Notes: generated from the sequence alone by a model not told the origin. A stretch of DNA of 64,000 nt from Chromatiales bacterium (GCA_050486285.1 JBJHCZ010000011.1:737-64736), one strand, 5' to 3'. Shown: positions 5,174 through 61,381, counted from the first letter of the stretch. Translations and numbers: made by a program.

Positions 5174-5420
5174 CCGGGTCGGACCACGGCAAGCTACTGA
5201 TTTATCACATCCTCAAGAAAATGGGCGCGCACCAGTTTGCCGAAATTCCGCTCGATCGTCTTTTTCAGGGTCAGAATTGACTCTTGCGGCAGCACCGGCA
5301 CAGACAGCCATGCTCGACAGCGATTTTCACCCCTGAAAATCGCTCGGGAGGCTGGTTTCAAGCCGAAAATTCTGTTTCCTTCAATTTAATTACAATGAGT
5401 TACCGTGGTCCGACCCGGAA
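5173..5420. repeat. MITE-like element copy 1 (~245 bp) with terminal inverted repeats CCGGGTCGGACCACGG / CCGTGGTCCGACCCGG
   Basis: Perfect 16-nt terminal inverted repeats. Internal segments (gctcgatcg..tttt; gattttcacccctgaaaatcgctcgggaggctg) are shared with the copy at 6631-6880. Confidence 0.6.
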
Positions 5421-6644
5421 TCGCTCCTGCACAATCGCCGGCCGATTTGGCAAGGCCAGCGTCACCGTCCAGCAGATCGCGAGCATCACCGCCGACCCGA
5501 TCAGCACCCACGCAAGCCCGCCCCACTGATACAGCAGCCCCGACAGCAGCGTGCCGAGGAAGCGCCCCGACGCGTTCGCCGCGTAGTAGAAGCCGACGTC
5601 CTCGGCCGCCTTCTCCGAGCCGGCATAGGCGAGGATCAGATAGGAATGCACCGACGAGTTGATCGCGAACACAATGCCGAACAGGCCGAGGCCGGCGACG
5701 ACGATCCAGACCAGGTGATCGACGTCGGCGATGACCGGCACCGCGAGCGCGGCCGGGATCAGCGCGAGTACCGCCGACCAGCGCCGCGCGGCAGGGACTT
5801 CACGGCTCAGGCCGTCGGGGCTGTGGCGCACCAGCGCGGGCGCGATTGCCTGCACCGCGCCATAGCCGATCGTCCACAGCGCCATGAAGGCGCCGACCAT
5901 CGCGAAGGTCCAGCCCGACGCATAGAGGAACACCGGCACGCCGACGACGAACCACACATCGCGCGCGCCGAACAATGCGACGCGCGCAGCGGCGAGCAGG
6001 TTGATGCCGCGATGCTTCGCGAACAGCTCACGCGCCGAGCGCGAGGCGGCGCCCCGACCGAGGTTCGGCGGCAACAGCGCAACGACGCCGATCAGCACAA
6101 ACAACAGCAGCGCCGCCATCACCCACAATGCGACCTGAAAACCCAGCGCCTGCAGCAGCACGCCGCCGATAAAAAAACCGGCGCCCTTCATCGCGTTCTT
6201 GCTGCCGGTGAAGAACGCGACCCAGCGAAACAGCTGTCCCGAGGCTTCGCCGGCGGTCAGCTTGATCGCCGACTTGCTCGCGGTCTTGGTCAGGTCCTTG
6301 GCAACGCCGCAGATGCCCTGGGCAAGTACGACCCACGCCACCGACAACGCCGCCGCCCAGGTCGGGGACAACGCCGAGAGCAGCAGGAAACCGGCGATCT
6401 GCAGGCTCAGGCCGGTCGCCAGCATGCGCGAGATCCCGAAGCGCGTCGCCAGCCAGCCGCCGACCAGATTCGCGACGATGCCCGCCGCCTCGTAGAGCAG
6501 AAACAGCAGCGCGAGCGTGAACGGCGAGTAACCGAGCTGGTAGAAATGCAGCAGCACCAGCATGCGCAGCGCGCCGTCGGTCAGCGTGAATCCCCAGTAC
6601 GAGGCGGTGACGATCGCGTATGGTCTCAACTGGGGTCGGACCAC
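5400..6644 (-). CDS. MFS transporter whose start and stop codons lie inside the flanking MITE-like repeats
   Basis: MFS-type TM profile. The N-terminal codons (M/V-V-R-P-Q) and C-terminal codons (..RFRVGPR*) are encoded by the GGTCGGACCACGG terminal repeats of the two elements. Confidence 0.65.
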   Translation of the reverse strand: MVRPQLRPYAIVTASYWGFTLTDGALRMLVLLHFYQLGYSPFTLALLFLLYEAAGIVANLVGGWLATRFGISRMLATGLSLQIAGFLLLSALSPTWAAALSVAWVVLAQGICGVAKDLTKTASKSAIKLTAGEASGQLFRWVAFFTGSKNAMKGAGFFIGGVLLQALGFQVALWVMAALLLFVLIGVVALLPPNLGRGAASRSARELFAKHRGINLLAAARVALFGARDVWFVVGVPVFLYASGWTFAMVGAFMALWTIGYGAVQAIAPALVRHSPDGLSREVPAARRWSAVLALIPAALAVPVIADVDHLVWIVVAGLGLFGIVFAINSSVHSYLILAYAGSEKAAEDVGFYYAANASGRFLGTLLSGLLYQWGGLAWVLIGSAVMLAICWTVTLALPNRPAIVQERFRVGPR

Positions 6645-6880
6645 GGCAAGTCACTGAATATTTGGAAAGTCAAAGTCAGAGGCATGCCTGTATTAGCGGT
6701 CATTGTGCTCGATCGCCATTTTGGAGCTCAAAAATGACAATGCTGTTACACCAGGAATGGGCAACTGTGCGCATTGGGTGATTTTACCCCTGAAAAGCGC
6801 CCGGGAGGGCTGTTTCAGGCCTGAAATCCAGGGTCTTTGATCCAGATTACAATAACTTGCCGTGGTCCGACCCCGAATAA
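6631..6880. repeat. MITE-like element copy 2 (~250 bp), same family and orientation as 5173-5420
   Basis: Termini GGGGTCGGACCACGGCAAG ... CTTGCCGTGGTCCGACCCC. Internal blocks (gattttacccctgaaaagcgcccgggagggctg) are ~80% identical to copy 1. Confidence 0.6.
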
Positions 6881-13543: not shown

Positions 13544-13620
13544 GCCCCGGTAGCTCAGATGGATAGAGCATCCCCCTCCTAAGGGGAAGGTCACACGTTC
13601 GAATCGTGTTCGGGGCGCCA
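13544..13620 (+). tRNA. tRNA-Arg (anticodon CCU)
   Basis: Full cloverleaf by hand: acceptor GCCCCGG/TCGGGGC, D-arm GCTC..GAGC, anticodon stem TCCCC/GGGGA with loop CTCCTAA, T-arm ACACG-TTCGAAT-CGTGT, 3' GCCA. Confidence 0.9.
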
Positions 13621-19770: not shown

Positions 19771-19845
19771 GGGGTCAGAGTCGTTTGATCCCCGATGAAT
19801 CCCGGGGAGGGCGATCGCATGCCTGGATCAAACGACTCTGACCCC
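19771..19845. repeat. REP-like palindromic element, copy A (GGGGTCAGAGTCGTTTGATC ... GATCAAACGACTCTGACCCC)
   Basis: 20-nt perfect inverted arms around a ~35-nt centre, between the lpd stop and the sucC start. Arms match the copies at 44908 and 60203. Confidence 0.6.
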
Positions 19846-44907: not shown

Positions 44908-44980
44908 GGGGTCAGAGTCGTTTGATCGAAATGCATCCGTCGAAATTGATTTTACCCGGGGTCAAACCACTCTGACCCCC
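44908..44980. repeat. REP-like palindromic element, copy B (degenerate right arm)
   Basis: GGGGTCAGAGTCGTTTGATC ... GGTCAAACCACTCTGACCCC, between the convergent uup and sprT 3' ends. Confidence 0.55.
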
Positions 44981-49208: not shown

Positions 49209-49417
49209 GCGCGTCGTTCCGTTTCGCGGACACCCGACGCTGGTAACGGCGGTATTCGGACCCGGGCCGGCCATGTCTTTTCAGGACCGCCATGAACCCA
49301 TCCCTGGGGGCTGCCTGCGAGACATCCTGTCTCGCAGGCTCCTGAAAAGACATGGCCGGCCCGGGTCCTCCTGATGTCTCGTGCCGGTCGGGTGTCCGCG
49401 AAACGGAACGACGCGAT
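49209..49417. repeat. Nested-palindrome element copy 1: conserved 55-nt core hairpin inside two tiers of unique inverted repeats
   Basis: Outer arms (~31 nt) / 17-nt spacers / middle arms (~29 nt) / core ccgccatgaacccatccctgggggctgcctGCGAGACAtccTGTCTCGCaggc. The core is 53/55 identical to 54339-54391. The arms differ but remain complementary. Confidence 0.6.
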
Positions 49418-49456
49418 CGCTTGACAAGACCGGCGGCCGGGCGCATATAGCCCGCG

Positions 49457-50893
49457 ATGCCGACCGTATACTCCAGGGACCCCCGCGCCGAAAGGTCGCT
49501 GCGACACTCGATCCGGGACGGAGTGTCGTGGTCGGTGATGATCGGCAGCGGCGAGAGCTACTTCTCGGCCTTCGCGATCTACCTGAAGGCGACGACTGCC
49601 CAGATCGGCATCCTCGCCACCCTGCCGCCGCTGATCGCGTCGTTCGCCCAGTTGCTGTCGTCGTGGCTCGGGCGCCTGAGCGGCCGGCGCAAGGGTATCA
49701 TCGTGTGCGGCGCCGCCCTGCAGGCCGTGACCCTGATCCCGCTCGCGCTGCTGCCGATCCTGTTCCCGGATCATGCGATCCCGATCCTGATCGGCTGCGC
49801 GATCGTCTACTTCGCCGGCGCGAACCTCGCCGCGCCGCAATGGGGCAGCCTGATGGGCGACCTCGTCCCGGAACGGCGCCGCGGACGCTATTTCGGCCAC
49901 CGGACCCGGCTGTGCAGCATCACCTCGTTCCTCGCGCTGGTGTTCGCCGGCGTCACCCTCGACCTGTTCGACCGCAACGGCTGGACCATCGCCGGCTACC
50001 TGACGATCCTGTTCGTCGCCGCCACCGCGCGGATGGTCTCGGTCTGGCACCTGTCGCGCATGTACGACCCGCCCGGCCATGTCGCGGCGCTCGAATCGCC
50101 GTTCCGGGCCGGTATCCGCGAACGCCTGCGCGGCTCGCCGTTCGTCCGCTTCTCGATCTTTTTCGCGGTGATGCAGTTCGCGGTCCACATCGCCGCGCCG
50201 TTCTTCGTGCTGTACATGCTGCGCGACCTCGGCCTCAGCTATCTCGAGTTCACGATCCTGAGCGCGACCTCGGTGCTGGTGCAGTTCCTGACGCTGAACC
50301 GTTGGGGCCGGCTCAGCGACGTATTCGGCAACCGCTTCATCCTCGTCGTCACCGGGCTGACGATCCCGATCCTGCCGGCGTTGTGGCTGGTGTCGACGAA
50401 CTATGTCTGGCTGCTGCTGGTACAGGCCCTGAGCGGGCTGGCGTGGGCGGGGTTCTCGCTGAGCGCGGGCAACTATCTGTACGACCTGATCCCGGGCGCA
50501 AAGCGCGCGACGCTGATGGCCTTCCATAACGTGCTGGCGAGCGTCGGGATTTTCTGCGGCGCGCTGCTCGGCGGCTGGCTGGGCACCCACCTGCCGACGG
50601 AGATCACGCTGTTCGGAGAGACCTACGAATGGTTCAGCGCGCTATACGGGGTGTTTCTCGCATCGACGCTCGCGCGCTTCGCGGTCGCGGCACTGTTCCT
50701 GCCGCGGCTGCGGGAGATGCGCGCGGTCAGGCCGGTCAGCGTCGGCGACCTGATCTTCCGGGTCAGTCGCTTCCACCCGCTGTCCGGGCTGAACTTCGAC
50801 ATCGTCGGTTCGCGCCGGCGCAAGACGGCGCGCAGGACCGCCGGCCATGACGACGACGTGCCGCCGGCCTCGACCGGCGGCGGGGGAGGCCCC

Positions 50894-54276: not shown

Positions 54277-54450
54277 TGAATCATTCATGAATCTCCAGTT
54301 GCAGTGGCTGGATCCCGGGCAGTCTGGCCCTCCCGGGACCGCCATAAACCCATCCCTGGGGGCTGCCGGCGAGACATCCTGTCTCGCAGGCTCCCGGGAG
54401 GGCCAGACTGCCCGGGATCTGTGGGTGTCGTGCGTGATTCATGAATGATG
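54277..54450. repeat. Nested-palindrome element copy 2 (same architecture and core as 49209-49417)
   Basis: Outer arms TGAATCATTCATGAATC / GATTCATGAATGATG, 16-17-nt spacers, middle arms GATCCCGGGCAGTCTGGCCCTCCCGGGA / reverse complement, and the conserved core hairpin. Confidence 0.6.
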
Positions 54451-59711: not shown

Positions 59712-60194
59712 ATGAGCAACCGACCGGACTACAAGATGATCTGCGGATCCTCGCTCGGCACCGAGCTCGAGGAGGAGGAATGCAAGGTCCTCGCCGGGGT
59801 CATGAAGGTCCAGCGCCTCGAGGACGGCGAGATGCTGGTCCGCGAGGGTGTCGATGACAACACCCTGTTCGTGCTGACCGAGGGCAAGCTCGCGGTCGTC
59901 GGCACCGTGCTCGGCCAGGAGCTGACCGTCTACACGATGAGCCCCGGCGAGGCCGCCGGCACCCGCGCCTTCGTCGATCGTACCCCGCGCAAGGCGACGC
60001 TGCGCGCGATCGGCAAGGCGACCGTTTGCACGCTCGAGCCGGAAGACTTCGAGGCCCTGCTCGAGACCCATCCGAAGATCGTCTACAAGGTCATGCGCGC
60101 GCTGTTCCGCATCACGCACACGAACCTGATGCGCATGAATCTCGAGAGCCAGGAGTTGGTCAACTACGTGTCGAAGGTCAGGGGCCGCTACTAG
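59712..60194 (+). CDS. Small cyclic-nucleotide-binding domain protein
   Basis: 160 aa with a single cNMP-binding beta-roll (..GEAAGTRAFVDRTPRKATLRA..). Confidence 0.6.
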   Translation: MSNRPDYKMICGSSLGTELEEEECKVLAGVMKVQRLEDGEMLVREGVDDNTLFVLTEGKLAVVGTVLGQELTVYTMSPGEAAGTRAFVDRTPRKATLRAIGKATVCTLEPEDFEALLETHPKIVYKVMRALFRITHTNLMRMNLESQELVNYVSKVRGRY

Positions 60195-60202
60195 CCGACT
60201 AT

Positions 60203-60275
60203 GGGGTCAGAGTCGTTTGATCGAGATTGCATCAGTCGGATTTGATGATCCCGGTGATCAAACGACTCTGACCCC
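60203..60275. repeat. REP-like palindromic element, copy C
   Basis: GGGGTCAGAGTCGTTTGATC ... GATCAAACGACTCTGACCCC, between convergent 3' ends. Confidence 0.6.
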
Positions 60276-60283
60276 CGCGATAG

Positions 60284-61381
60284 CTAGTCCGCGCGGATGA
60301 TGAGGTTCCGGCCGCCGGACATGGCCTGGTACAGGGCCTGATCGGCGCGGGCGATCAGCGTCTCGCTATCGAAGCCCGCCAGCACGCCGTCCTCCGGCGC
60401 GTTCAGCGTCGCGACCCCGATCGACGCCGTGACCCGCAGTATCTCGCCGTCACCCCCGCCGAATGCGTGCGTCTCGATCGCCGCGCGCATGCGTTCGGCG
60501 ACCTCGAGCGCCCTGTCCCGCCCGGTATGGACGAGCAAGGCCGCGAATTCCTCCCCGCCGTAGCGTGACAGCACATCGCTGCGACGCAGTTGCGCGCGGC
60601 ACAGCGCGGCGATCTCGCGCAGCACGTCGTCTCCGGTCTGGTGTCCCCGGGTGTCGTTGATGCGCTTGAAGTGATCGACATCGATCAGCAGACAGCTGAG
60701 CGGTTCGCGGCTGCGCAACGAGTGGCCGACCTCTTCGTTGAGACGCTGGTCGAAATAGCGCCGGTTATTGACCGCCGTCAGCGTGTCGGTCAGGCCGAGG
60801 CGCTTGATCCGTTCGAGGTTGATCGCGTTCTCGAGGCAGATCGCGACGACTGCGGCGAGGTGTTCGAGAAAATCGCTGCGAATGCCGCGCTCGGCGAAAC
60901 GCTCGGGCGCGAAACTGCCGATGTTGAGACTGCCGATCAGCTTGCCGTGGCGCACCAGCGGCAGCAGCGCAACGCTGGCCGGCGGCTTCGCGACCTTCGG
61001 GAACAGCAAGGCATGCGCCCTCGCCCGGTACGGCCCGAGCAGCGGGAACAGGGAGACCGGATACAGCGCGCCGAGATCCTCGCGCTCGCGCGCGAAGATC
61101 AGCCCGGGATGCGCGGCAGGGTCGATGCCCTCCTCCTCCAGCGCGCGCTGGATCTCGTATTCGGCGTCGTGCAGCCACAAGGTCACCAGATCCCAGTCGA
61201 AGGCGCGGCGATCCGGATTGACGACCGCCTCGATCAACTCGACCAGCGAGTTCAGGCCGATCAGGCGCAGCTCCCAGGACTTGAAACGGCGCATCTTGCG
61301 CTCGTTGTGCCGGGCCTGTTCGAGCAGGTCTTCCAGGCGCTGTCGCAGCAGCCTGTTTTCCGTCCGACCTTCCTCTGTCAT
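60284..61381 (-). CDS. Sensor-domain diguanylate cyclase (GAF/DUF484-like N-domain + GGDEF)
   Basis: RYGGEEF active-site motif, an I-site RxxD, and an N-terminal sensory domain. 365 aa. Confidence 0.8.
   Translation of the reverse strand: MTEEGRTENRLLRQRLEDLLEQARHNERKMRRFKSWELRLIGLNSLVELIEAVVNPDRRAFDWDLVTLWLHDAEYEIQRALEEEGIDPAAHPGLIFAREREDLGALYPVSLFPLLGPYRARAHALLFPKVAKPPASVALLPLVRHGKLIGSLNIGSFAPERFAERGIRSDFLEHLAAVVAICLENAINLERIKRLGLTDTLTAVNNRRYFDQRLNEEVGHSLRSREPLSCLLIDVDHFKRINDTRGHQTGDDVLREIAALCRAQLRRSDVLSRYGGEEFAALLVHTGRDRALEVAERMRAAIETHAFGGGDGEILRVTASIGVATLNAPEDGVLAGFDSETLIARADQALYQAMSGGRNLIIRAD

Follow-up and report, generated by a model that had tools for sequence, protein, structure and literature searches.

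Two loci in a 64,000-nucleotide stretch of DNA from a Chromatiales bacterium (GCA_050486285.1 JBJHCZ010000011.1:737-64736; hereafter the window), at positions 49209-49417 (copy 1) and 54277-54450 (copy 2), are members of an undescribed family of intergenic DNA palindromes carried by several gammaproteobacteria known from metagenomes. An initial annotation of the window had presented them as a two-copy element; about 40 copies are now known. The best reading of the family is that of a non-coding interspersed palindromic DNA repeat of the kind represented by repetitive extragenic palindromic (REP) elements, bacterial interspersed mosaic elements (BIMEs) and miniature inverted-repeat transposable elements (MITEs), with an invariant centre and with arms that only pairing defines.

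Copies were first sought with the right half of the core, in a scan that covered a single genome of each species and gave 14 true loci, all in two metagenome-assembled genomes (MAGs) labelled 'uncultured Chromatiales', CAYLKC01 (M1) and CAZJKV01 (M2); the remaining 22 matches were chance ones, mostly archaeal intron-containing tRNA. The left half, used on metagenomes, gave 11 loci, seven of them on contigs whose LepA is 95-99% identical to Povalibacter proteins. A covariance model (R1) built from 23 copies then revealed further diverged copies inside the same loci. On the Povalibacter contigs every main module is accompanied by an inverted, diverged second module about 110 nt away, and the window and MAG copies are single modules. 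One more copy (L050) was reached through relatives of the flanking proteins. The core search and covariance model across related genomes, which the initial annotation had proposed as a check, thereby yielded the total of about 40. In the window, a 42-nt core pattern matches twice, both times at these loci, with 0 matches expected by chance. At least 15 copies reside in one incomplete MAG, and the MAG copy numbers are underestimates because the repeat breaks assemblies.

Architecture and conservation of the element

From the outside in, the element consists of outer arms (P0), two unpaired spacers of 13-19 nt that form an asymmetric internal loop, a middle helix of 25-32 bp (P1) and a core; it measures 170-210 bp and has no open reading frame (ORF) inside. 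An inverted-repeat search recovered this nesting at both window loci, as had been described, with asymmetric spacers and with all four arm pairs 100% self-complementary within their own copy; the three longest perfect inverted repeats of the 64-kb window are arms of these two loci. In most copies P0 consists of GCAnnATTCATGAAC and its complement, about 155 nt apart, and the spacers carry motifs, GGTAT-like on the left and CTGA...GTGCGG on the right. The arms had also been said to share almost no primary sequence between copies. For the middle arms this is not wholly so: those of both window copies have GGAYCCGGGC at their outer end, and family-wide the inner 10 nt are shared as well.

Copy 1 (all features of both copies are given on the + strand) begins with a 29-nt P0 arm at 49210-49238, 100% complementary to the right arm at 49387-49415 and unique in sequence to its locus among all loci collected. 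The left spacer (49239-49257) is unpaired, carries the GGTAT motif and is inverted along with the core in L024, the orthologous copy in M1. The 29-nt left P1 arm at 49258-49286 is 100% complementary to the right one at 49340-49368. Between them lie segment J (49287-49312), 26 nt that are conserved family-wide and contain the small hairpin SLa, and the core hairpin P2, or SLb (49313-49339). SLa is made up of GCC (49289-49291), CCC (49297-49299), the loop ATCCCT (49300-49305), GGG (49306-49308) and GGC (49309-49311). SLb reads GCC-T-GCGAGACA, loop TCC, TGTCTCGC-A-GGC, a hairpin of 12 bp with arms at 49313-49324 and 49328-49339, that is, GCCTGCGAGACA-TCC-TGTCTCGCAGGC. The right spacer (49369-49386) carries CTGA ... 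GTGC, a motif common to most copies and, on the top strand, always located 3' of the core.

In copy 2, the P0 arms are 14 nt long (54280-54293, 100% complementary to 54436-54449) and both include TTCATGAA, which in the window occurs only in these two arms and at other loci almost only in element arms about 155 nt apart; the right arm ends 7 nt short of the stop codon of arfB, which lies on the - strand. The P1 arms, 28 nt and 100% complementary, occupy 54311-54338 and 54392-54419, and sequence reading places the spacers at 54294-54310 and 54420-54435. Segment J with SLa spans 54339-54364, and SLb (54365-54391) is the same hairpin as in copy 1, with one G.A mismatch at stem position 4. The two cores are near-identical, as had been noted, and differ at 2 positions.

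Folded as single-stranded DNA, copy 1 has a predicted energy of -105 kcal/mol (z = -17 versus shuffled sequences); copy 2, folded as RNA, has one of -114 kcal/mol (z = -9.6). The predicted fold of each copy is one nested rod, and in both folds the 26 nt 5' of SLb are structured, forming SLa as a second small hairpin. The core is, as modelled, a 53-nt three-way junction of P1, SLa and SLb. The two hairpins are alike, each closed by GCC/GGC and each with TCC in the loop. SLa has the consensus GCC-RTRAA-[YMC]-RTCCCT-[GKR]-GGC, in which the inner 3-bp helix covaries (CCC/GGG, TCC/GGA, TAC/GTA). The stem of SLb is swapped wholesale between organisms (GCGAGACA, CAAAAACA, CGAAAACA, CGCGTCC, TCACAAG), and despite these changes the loop TCC, the closing GCC/GGC and an unpaired 3' A are fixed; the same 26-nt segment J occurs with a different SLb stem in Povalibacter and two other metagenome sources. 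The loop TCC (GGA on the bottom strand) is the same in both hairpins of each of the approximately 40 copies, whatever their stems.

Constraint on the core is very strong. Among the full copies of the window and both MAGs (14 in total), conservation of the core columns reaches 99.6%, against 91% between-copy identity for the inner 10 nt of P1 and only 51% pairwise identity for the P1 centre, even though the helix is perfectly paired inside each copy.

Covariation, inversions and empty alleles

The initial annotation had taken the pairing of dissimilar arms as a sign of selection on structure, whether RNA or cruciform DNA, and not of a simple transposon terminal inverted repeat. One part of this stands: the helices do covary, and the arms are not a conserved transposase-binding terminal repeat. 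In 23 copies, 18 of 25 middle-arm and core pairs change on both sides with 97% of cells paired, none of 500 shuffles reached the observed covariation score, and structures in which the partner was slid dropped to 30-48% paired. The other part does not, in that this is not classical RNA covariation. P1 of 24 copies contains 659 Watson-Crick pairs, 5 internal mismatches or bulges and 0 G-T pairs. Between window copy 1 and its orthologue L024, P1 differs by one substitution and one 1-nt indel, both mirrored in the partner arm, and the outer arms add two more mirrored substitutions; five mirrored substitutions separate the M1 and M2 orthologues L017 and L006. The mirrored indel and the lack of wobble intermediates argue for arm-to-arm copying of a DNA inverted repeat rather than for mutation and selection on an RNA helix. 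Thus, the covariation pattern points to DNA-level homogenisation of inverted repeats.

Such behaviour resembles the concerted evolution of large inverted repeats in the chloroplast, in Y-chromosome palindromes and in quasipalindrome correction of E. coli, which likewise combine identity within a copy with divergence between copies, transfer indels to the partner arm and show flip-flop of the intervening segment. Unlike in those systems, the arms here are 14-32 bp long, which is close to, or under, what RecA-dependent exchange usually requires, and template switching during replication is therefore the more likely route.

Inversions were evident at both window loci. With all cores aligned in one direction, L024 (M1) has reversed flanks compared with window copy 1; at the copy 2 locus, the flanks of L025 (M2) are reversed, and L008 (M1) and L050 have the window orientation. 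The spacers move with the core, and the breakpoints fall within the outer arms. Because the copy 1 arms are locus-specific and the flipped interiors are homologous at both loci, these are in-place inversions and not independent insertions. No copy has its core flipped relative to its own spacers, even though P1 arms are no shorter than P0 arms. The flips, the perfect arm identity and the mirrored changes are together accounted for by exchange between inverted repeats.

The same inversions bring to mind a programmed invertible switch (inverton), in which the outer arms would be invertase repeats and a flip would alter the expression of flanking genes. The opposite orientations of the interior in related genomes, seen at both loci in a between-species comparison and with breakpoints in the outer arms, agree with this idea, and both loci adjoin promoters. 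Several contigs also break inside the element, but such breaks are expected at any repeat. The outer arms, moreover, are of at least three types between copies, so no single invertase could recognise them; no promoter-like site lies inside; many copies are located between convergent genes; and no recombinase gene was seen among the 37 window ORFs or beside other copies. We therefore regard a programmed switch as highly improbable.

All copies are intergenic and may have any orientation relative to genes. They occur between convergent genes (L009, L014, L035, L037), between divergent genes (window copy 1, L034) and between tandem genes in one sense (L006/L017, L025, L026) or the other (L004, L032, L040, window copy 2), with no GC-skew (replication-strand) bias in their orientation (14/24). 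Their neighbours are housekeeping genes, for example dnaG-rpoD-rdgC in L047, and neither an all-against-all comparison of flanking ORFs nor Pfam searches of the flanks identified a recurring neighbour gene. The Pfam searches bore out the settings first proposed, copy 1 lying between a SET-domain gene and an MFS gene and copy 2 between the arfB stop codon (- strand) and the rhlE promoter, TTTGCA-16-TACAAT. A locus-specific RNA or regulatory structure does not describe a repeat dispersed in about 40 copies between convergent, divergent and tandem genes in either orientation, with presence/absence and inversion polymorphism at both window loci. A cis-regulatory leader or riboswitch was rejected, since orientation and gene context are random.

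Orthologous sites, reached via relatives of the flanking proteins, included empty ones. At the arfB-rhlE site the element is wholly missing from L049 (rhlE 91% identical), and in L051 (86%) a remnant is left, comprising a single outer arm, a single spacer and 10 nt of P1. The filled allele L050 has a P1 that differs at about 10 of 28 positions and is still palindromic. At the SET-MFS site the whole 207-bp unit, including the 29-bp P0 arms of copy 1, is missing from L052/L053, L054/L055 and L056/L057. The empty site of L052/L053 reads GTCAAT-GCCTGC-TTGACA, two back-to-back -35 boxes, and in L054-L057 these boxes are separated by about 20-55 nt of unrelated filler. Since copy 1 sits between the two boxes, its DNA is probably untranscribed, as judged from these conserved promoter elements. 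The SET-MFS alleles fit one gain, after the L052 lineage (93%, empty) had split off and before the split between the window and M1 (SET 94%, filled). Filled sites, in turn, are kept as orthologues across species with 80-94% protein identity, the core unchanged. Insertion into a pre-existing palindrome was rejected, because the outer arms are missing from the empty alleles and TTCATGAA almost never occurs without the interior (one lone match, L039).

Presence/absence between relatives is also a property of palindromic MITEs such as ERIC/IRU, YPAL, Correia/NEMIS and RUP, which are similarly non-coding intergenic sequences of 100-200 bp, self-complementary over their whole length and found in either orientation to genes. 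As an ordinary MITE, the element would be a deletion derivative of an insertion sequence, moved by a transposase bound to its terminal inverted repeats, and the inner palindromes would be incidental or nested insertions. A non-coding unit of 170-210 bp would suit this, as would the GCAnnATTCATGAAC arms about 155 nt apart in which most copies end, the other MITE-like families in the window (5174-5418, 6632-6874 and 19771-19845) and the interiors of L014 and L004, which are enclosed by arms of another palindrome family. Palindromic MITEs, however, have sequence-conserved arms, especially terminal inverted repeats, and target-site duplications. Here the pattern of conservation is inverted. Sequence conservation is confined to the centre, each copy has its own, perfectly paired arms, and the ends differ: most copies have in common only TTCATGAA inside copy-specific arms, and copy 1 has unrelated, locus-specific ones. 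No target-site duplication could be defined at the two sites compared, and no related insertion sequence was found. The family thus falls within the size range of MITEs, 70-300 bp, and has their non-coding nature, multiple copies and presence/absence pattern, but not their conserved terminal inverted repeats, and an ordinary MITE seems to us very doubtful.

A putative reader of the folded core

We give about an even chance to a mechanism in which three processes act jointly: recognition of the folded core, maintenance of the arms by inverted-repeat exchange or template switching, and rare spread with mostly vertical inheritance. The core would be the recognition site of a trans-acting, possibly RAYT-like, protein that reads folded single-stranded nucleic acid. 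By analogy with REP hairpins, which are bound by the RAYT/Y1 HUH enzyme, its most likely substrate would be single-stranded DNA exposed at replication, and a dimer binding the two similar hairpins is plausible. The arms would need only to pair and would be kept complementary by recombination or template switching between inverted repeats, and the same arm-to-arm process could produce both the flips and an occasional clean loss. Copies would spread rarely and would mostly be inherited vertically.

REP elements and their higher-order forms (BIME and REPIN) are the nearest known systems. The initial annotation had set REP aside as an identity; in sister subfamilies, however, the core hairpin and its 5' tag are REP-like. 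REP elements are short imperfect hairpins with a GTAG tag at one end (PMC3733652). The tag may be degenerate, as in GTGG, and in some families a gap of 2-3 nt separates it from the stem; GTAG-24 REPs have 12-13-bp stems with an unpaired G/A; and REP subfamilies show complementary stem changes, often occur as inverted dimers and are associated with RAYT genes (PMC3733652). SLb is likewise a 27-nt imperfect hairpin: its 12-bp stem has an N.A mismatch at position 4 and an unpaired purine, its loop is 3 nt long, and a tag region on its 5' side, described as single-stranded, is conserved. The present elements are also extragenic and multi-copy, persist vertically for long, show complementary stem changes between their subfamilies and, on the Povalibacter contigs only, form inverted module pairs. 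Sister subfamilies read CTGTAGGCT or CTGTACGCT and then the hairpin; directly before SLb, diverged subfamilies have CCCTGTAGGCT or CCCTGTACGCT and the window copies CCCTGGGGGCT. The tag of the diverged copies is GTAG (L047 7465-7544 and the Povalibacter second modules), GTAC (L032) or GGAG (L043). In contrast to REP, the present hairpin sits at the apex of a perfect 25-32-bp helix plus an outer helix, and a second small hairpin and 26 conserved nt precede it.

Two further systems share the principle of reading shape. attC sites are recognised by structure over sequence, being variable imperfect palindromes with unpaired spacers and extrahelical bases that act as one folded DNA strand. Their ends are conserved (RYYYAAC / GTTRRRY) and their apex is variable, the reverse of the present element, and they form same-orientation cassette arrays adjoining intI, whereas the present elements are dispersed among housekeeping genes in both orientations. 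An identity as integron attC was rejected: the arm ends ..CATGAAC / GTTCATG.. match only the AAC/GTT triplets, and there is no integrase among the 37 window ORFs. The inverted terminal repeats of parvoviruses, by analogy only, have a long stem capped by two small hairpins in a three-way junction, a shape read by an HUH protein, and two inverted orientations. They are, however, the ends of a linear single-stranded virus genome and not a chromosomal intergenic repeat, and the present flip, unlike parvovirus flip/flop, takes the spacers along and has its limits in the outer arms.

Several observations weigh against the joint mechanism and its REP-like core. The tag position in the window and all main copies reads GGGG, 3 nt from the stem, and not GTAG or the alternative REP tag CGTC. 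The element, with 170-210 bp where a REP has 20-40 bp, is five times as long, and its tens of copies are few where typical REPs exceed 100. No RAYT, Y1 or other transposase or recombinase was found among the 37 window ORFs or the genes beside other copies, and tblastn of the collected loci with YafM and IS200 TnpA sequences gave no Y1 match. The filled/empty comparison at two loci, where the junctions themselves are variable, showed no clear direct repeat that could be a target-site duplication, and the pattern at the arfB site fits loss as well as gain, loss in L049 being the more parsimonious reading. Read on the top strand, the mismatches inside P1 are C.A or A.C, from about 7 independent events versus 0 G.T, an asymmetry that hints at a strand-specific fold, which the mechanism does not predict; it is diluted to 9:2 by the outer-arm mismatches. 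Finally, the near-perfect core in old orthologous copies suggests a host-level function over a purely selfish element.

A host-level function could be that of a domesticated architectural DNA site, immobile now: a hairpin or cruciform for a chromosome-organising or topology protein, or an orientation-free stabiliser of mRNA 3' ends or insulator. REP and BIME sequences have been proposed as sites for gyrase and IHF. The retention of orthologous copies with an unchanged core (in species with 80-94% protein identity) argues for this reading, as do the strictly intergenic, orientation-free placement, which includes gaps between convergent genes, and the extreme predicted stability of the hairpins. 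The 53-nt non-palindromic centre, however, would be a poor nucleus for cruciform extrusion from duplex DNA, and a stabiliser or insulator leaves unexplained why a 99.6% conserved core is asymmetric and why spacers and core are co-oriented. The clean loss in L049 and the decay in L051 also show that the site is dispensable, and we know of no protein that binds it. We consider an architectural site unlikely.

An RNA-level role was judged on the bottom strand, where every copy has the loop sequences AGGGAU and GGA at a distance of 21 nt; RNAs bound by CsrA/RsmA have GGA in hairpin loops, at two sites separated by 10-60 nt. Here the element would be a CsrA/RsmA-type protein-binding RNA module that presents GGA in both apical loops, its long helix being an RNase III substrate or a stabiliser. 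The bottom-strand SLa' CAGGGAUG fits CANGGANG and SLb' reads ACAGGAUGU, the CsrA consensus sequences being those reportedly given by Dubey 2005 and Schubert 2007, and the 21-nt spacing is as one CsrA dimer needs. The unvarying TCC/GGA of the loops in about 40 copies, stems notwithstanding, favours this module; so does the fact that the C.A and A.C mismatches in P1 would be wobbles (G.U) only on the bottom strand, which for copy 2, in the arfB 3' region, is the sense strand. But the orientation is random: the strand placed downstream of a gene end would be the bottom one at 9 loci and the top one at 12, tandem cases stand at 4:3, and the orthologous copies L024 and L025 are flipped. Copy 1, between divergent -35 boxes, is probably untranscribed, and a scan found no promoter or terminator inside the element. 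In addition, 26 nt are conserved where CsrA needs about 5, and G.U pairs are virtually missing, unlike in functional RNAs. No Rfam family matches the element, in keeping with the initial annotation: the comparison gave no match for the window or the diverged copies, with no element match in the window at the gathering threshold of Rfam 15, none to CsrB, RsmY or RsmZ, and, in E-value mode, only hits far below the gathering score, the best being generic long-hairpin microRNA-precursor models. A CsrA-type module therefore appears quite unlikely.

Two narrower candidates were rejected. A hammerhead-like reading of the CTGA and GAAA motifs in the right spacer and outer arm leaves the invariant A9/G8 unmatched, and Rfam is silent on it; an internal sigma-54 or sigma-70 promoter lacks the critical positions, and the scan was negative. 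More speculatively, and with little probability in our estimate, the element could be a structure-defined cassette, with the core, its three-way junction and its two TCC/GGA loops, as a handle for a dimeric protein that works on one folded strand and flips, copy-corrects and occasionally moves or excises a pairing-defined hairpin, or else a mobile CsrA-type module, read from the bottom strand, that wires transcripts into a global regulon.

If the joint mechanism of core recognition and arm-to-arm exchange is true, the REP/REPIN theme would gain an architecture not reported before, in which long, perfect, sequence-free helices carry a REP-like pair of hairpins at their tip. The family would also be a clean natural case of concerted evolution in short bacterial inverted repeats, with compensated substitutions and indels, in-place flips and clean loss. 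Because the 'Chromatiales' MAGs and Povalibacter, at least two gammaproteobacterial lineages, have an almost invariant core in common, a conserved trans-acting partner is to be expected, and the covariance model could serve to find it through phylogenetic profiling. In practice, metagenome assemblies break at the element, and comparative screens can mistake its pattern for structured-RNA covariation.

Minor observations on copies, searches and neighbouring repeats

Five MAG or metagenome contigs break inside the core, three starting there (L003, L008, L043) and two ending there (L045, L050). In Povalibacter sp. (L042 1-700, L037 2150-2800) the element is part of a composite of at least 400 bp, in the order tandem GCTTCGATTGGCAGCGTGCGG repeats, main module, a covarying small hairpin (GCGCTC...GAGCGC) and the second inverted module, which comprises a 35-bp helix and the segment CCGCACGTAAATACGTCCCTGTAGGCT. 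The 21.8 kb around lepA in the Povalibacter uvarum type strain contain no copy.

Searches further afield gave little. A blastn search of a plasmid collection with copy 1 returned no match, and a full-text search of the literature for the core sequence returned nothing. Among viral contigs, exact and degenerate core patterns gave two matches, both uninformative: a chance one in coding sequence (L048) and a degenerate 25-mer similar to J, ACGCTGTGAATACGTCCCTGTACGCT, on an IMG/VR contig (L058 195-270). About 100 nt separate the 25-mer from the 3' end of a tRNA upstream of it, and GCTCCCACA(A)GG repeats follow; with neither a proper core hairpin nor a middle helix, the 25-mer may be a decayed copy in another organism. 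The 20-mer GAGACATCCTGTCTCGCAGG also occurs, by chance, at the 3' exon junction of an intron-containing tRNA conserved in many Thermoplasmata, and its tRNA matches comprise L001, L002, L007, L010 and about 15 other loci in Thermoplasmata and Methanobacteriota MAGs; the Thermoplasmata matches were rejected as family members, being intron-containing tRNA and unrelated.

Next to copy 1, the MFS gene is apparently leaderless, with TTGACA at 49421-49426, a 17-nt spacer, CATATA at 49444-49449 and the ATG at 49457, a layout kept in L052 and L056. In L017 and L006, a 10-codon upstream ORF (MNHATLRFVP / MNNAILRLVR) begins in the TTCATGAAT right outer arm, and its end overlaps the first codon of the gene that follows, in the form ATGA. 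The only window match to Rfam at the gathering threshold is a tRNA gene at 13544-13617.

A second palindromic repeat family is represented in the window at 19771-19845, 44908-44979 and 60203-60275. Each copy consists of GGGGTCAGAGTCGTTTGATC, a loop of 32-33 nt and the inverted arm, and the loops are mutually related; in L014 and L004, arms like these flank the studied element's interior. Because one loop (GAATCCCGGGGAGGGC) resembles the ends of the copy 2 middle arm, the second-family copies may be core-less derivatives of the studied element. The third of them is itself nested, at 60190-60288, in a further imperfect inverted repeat (ACTAGCCGACTAT... / ...CGCGATAGCTAGT, 82%), and the nesting of palindromes seems to be general in this genome. 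The elements of a third family, MITE-like and about 245 bp long, lie at 5174-5418 and 6632-6874; the two copies have terminal inverted repeats of 19-25 nt, GGGGTCGGACCACGGCAAG, and are similar internally as well.

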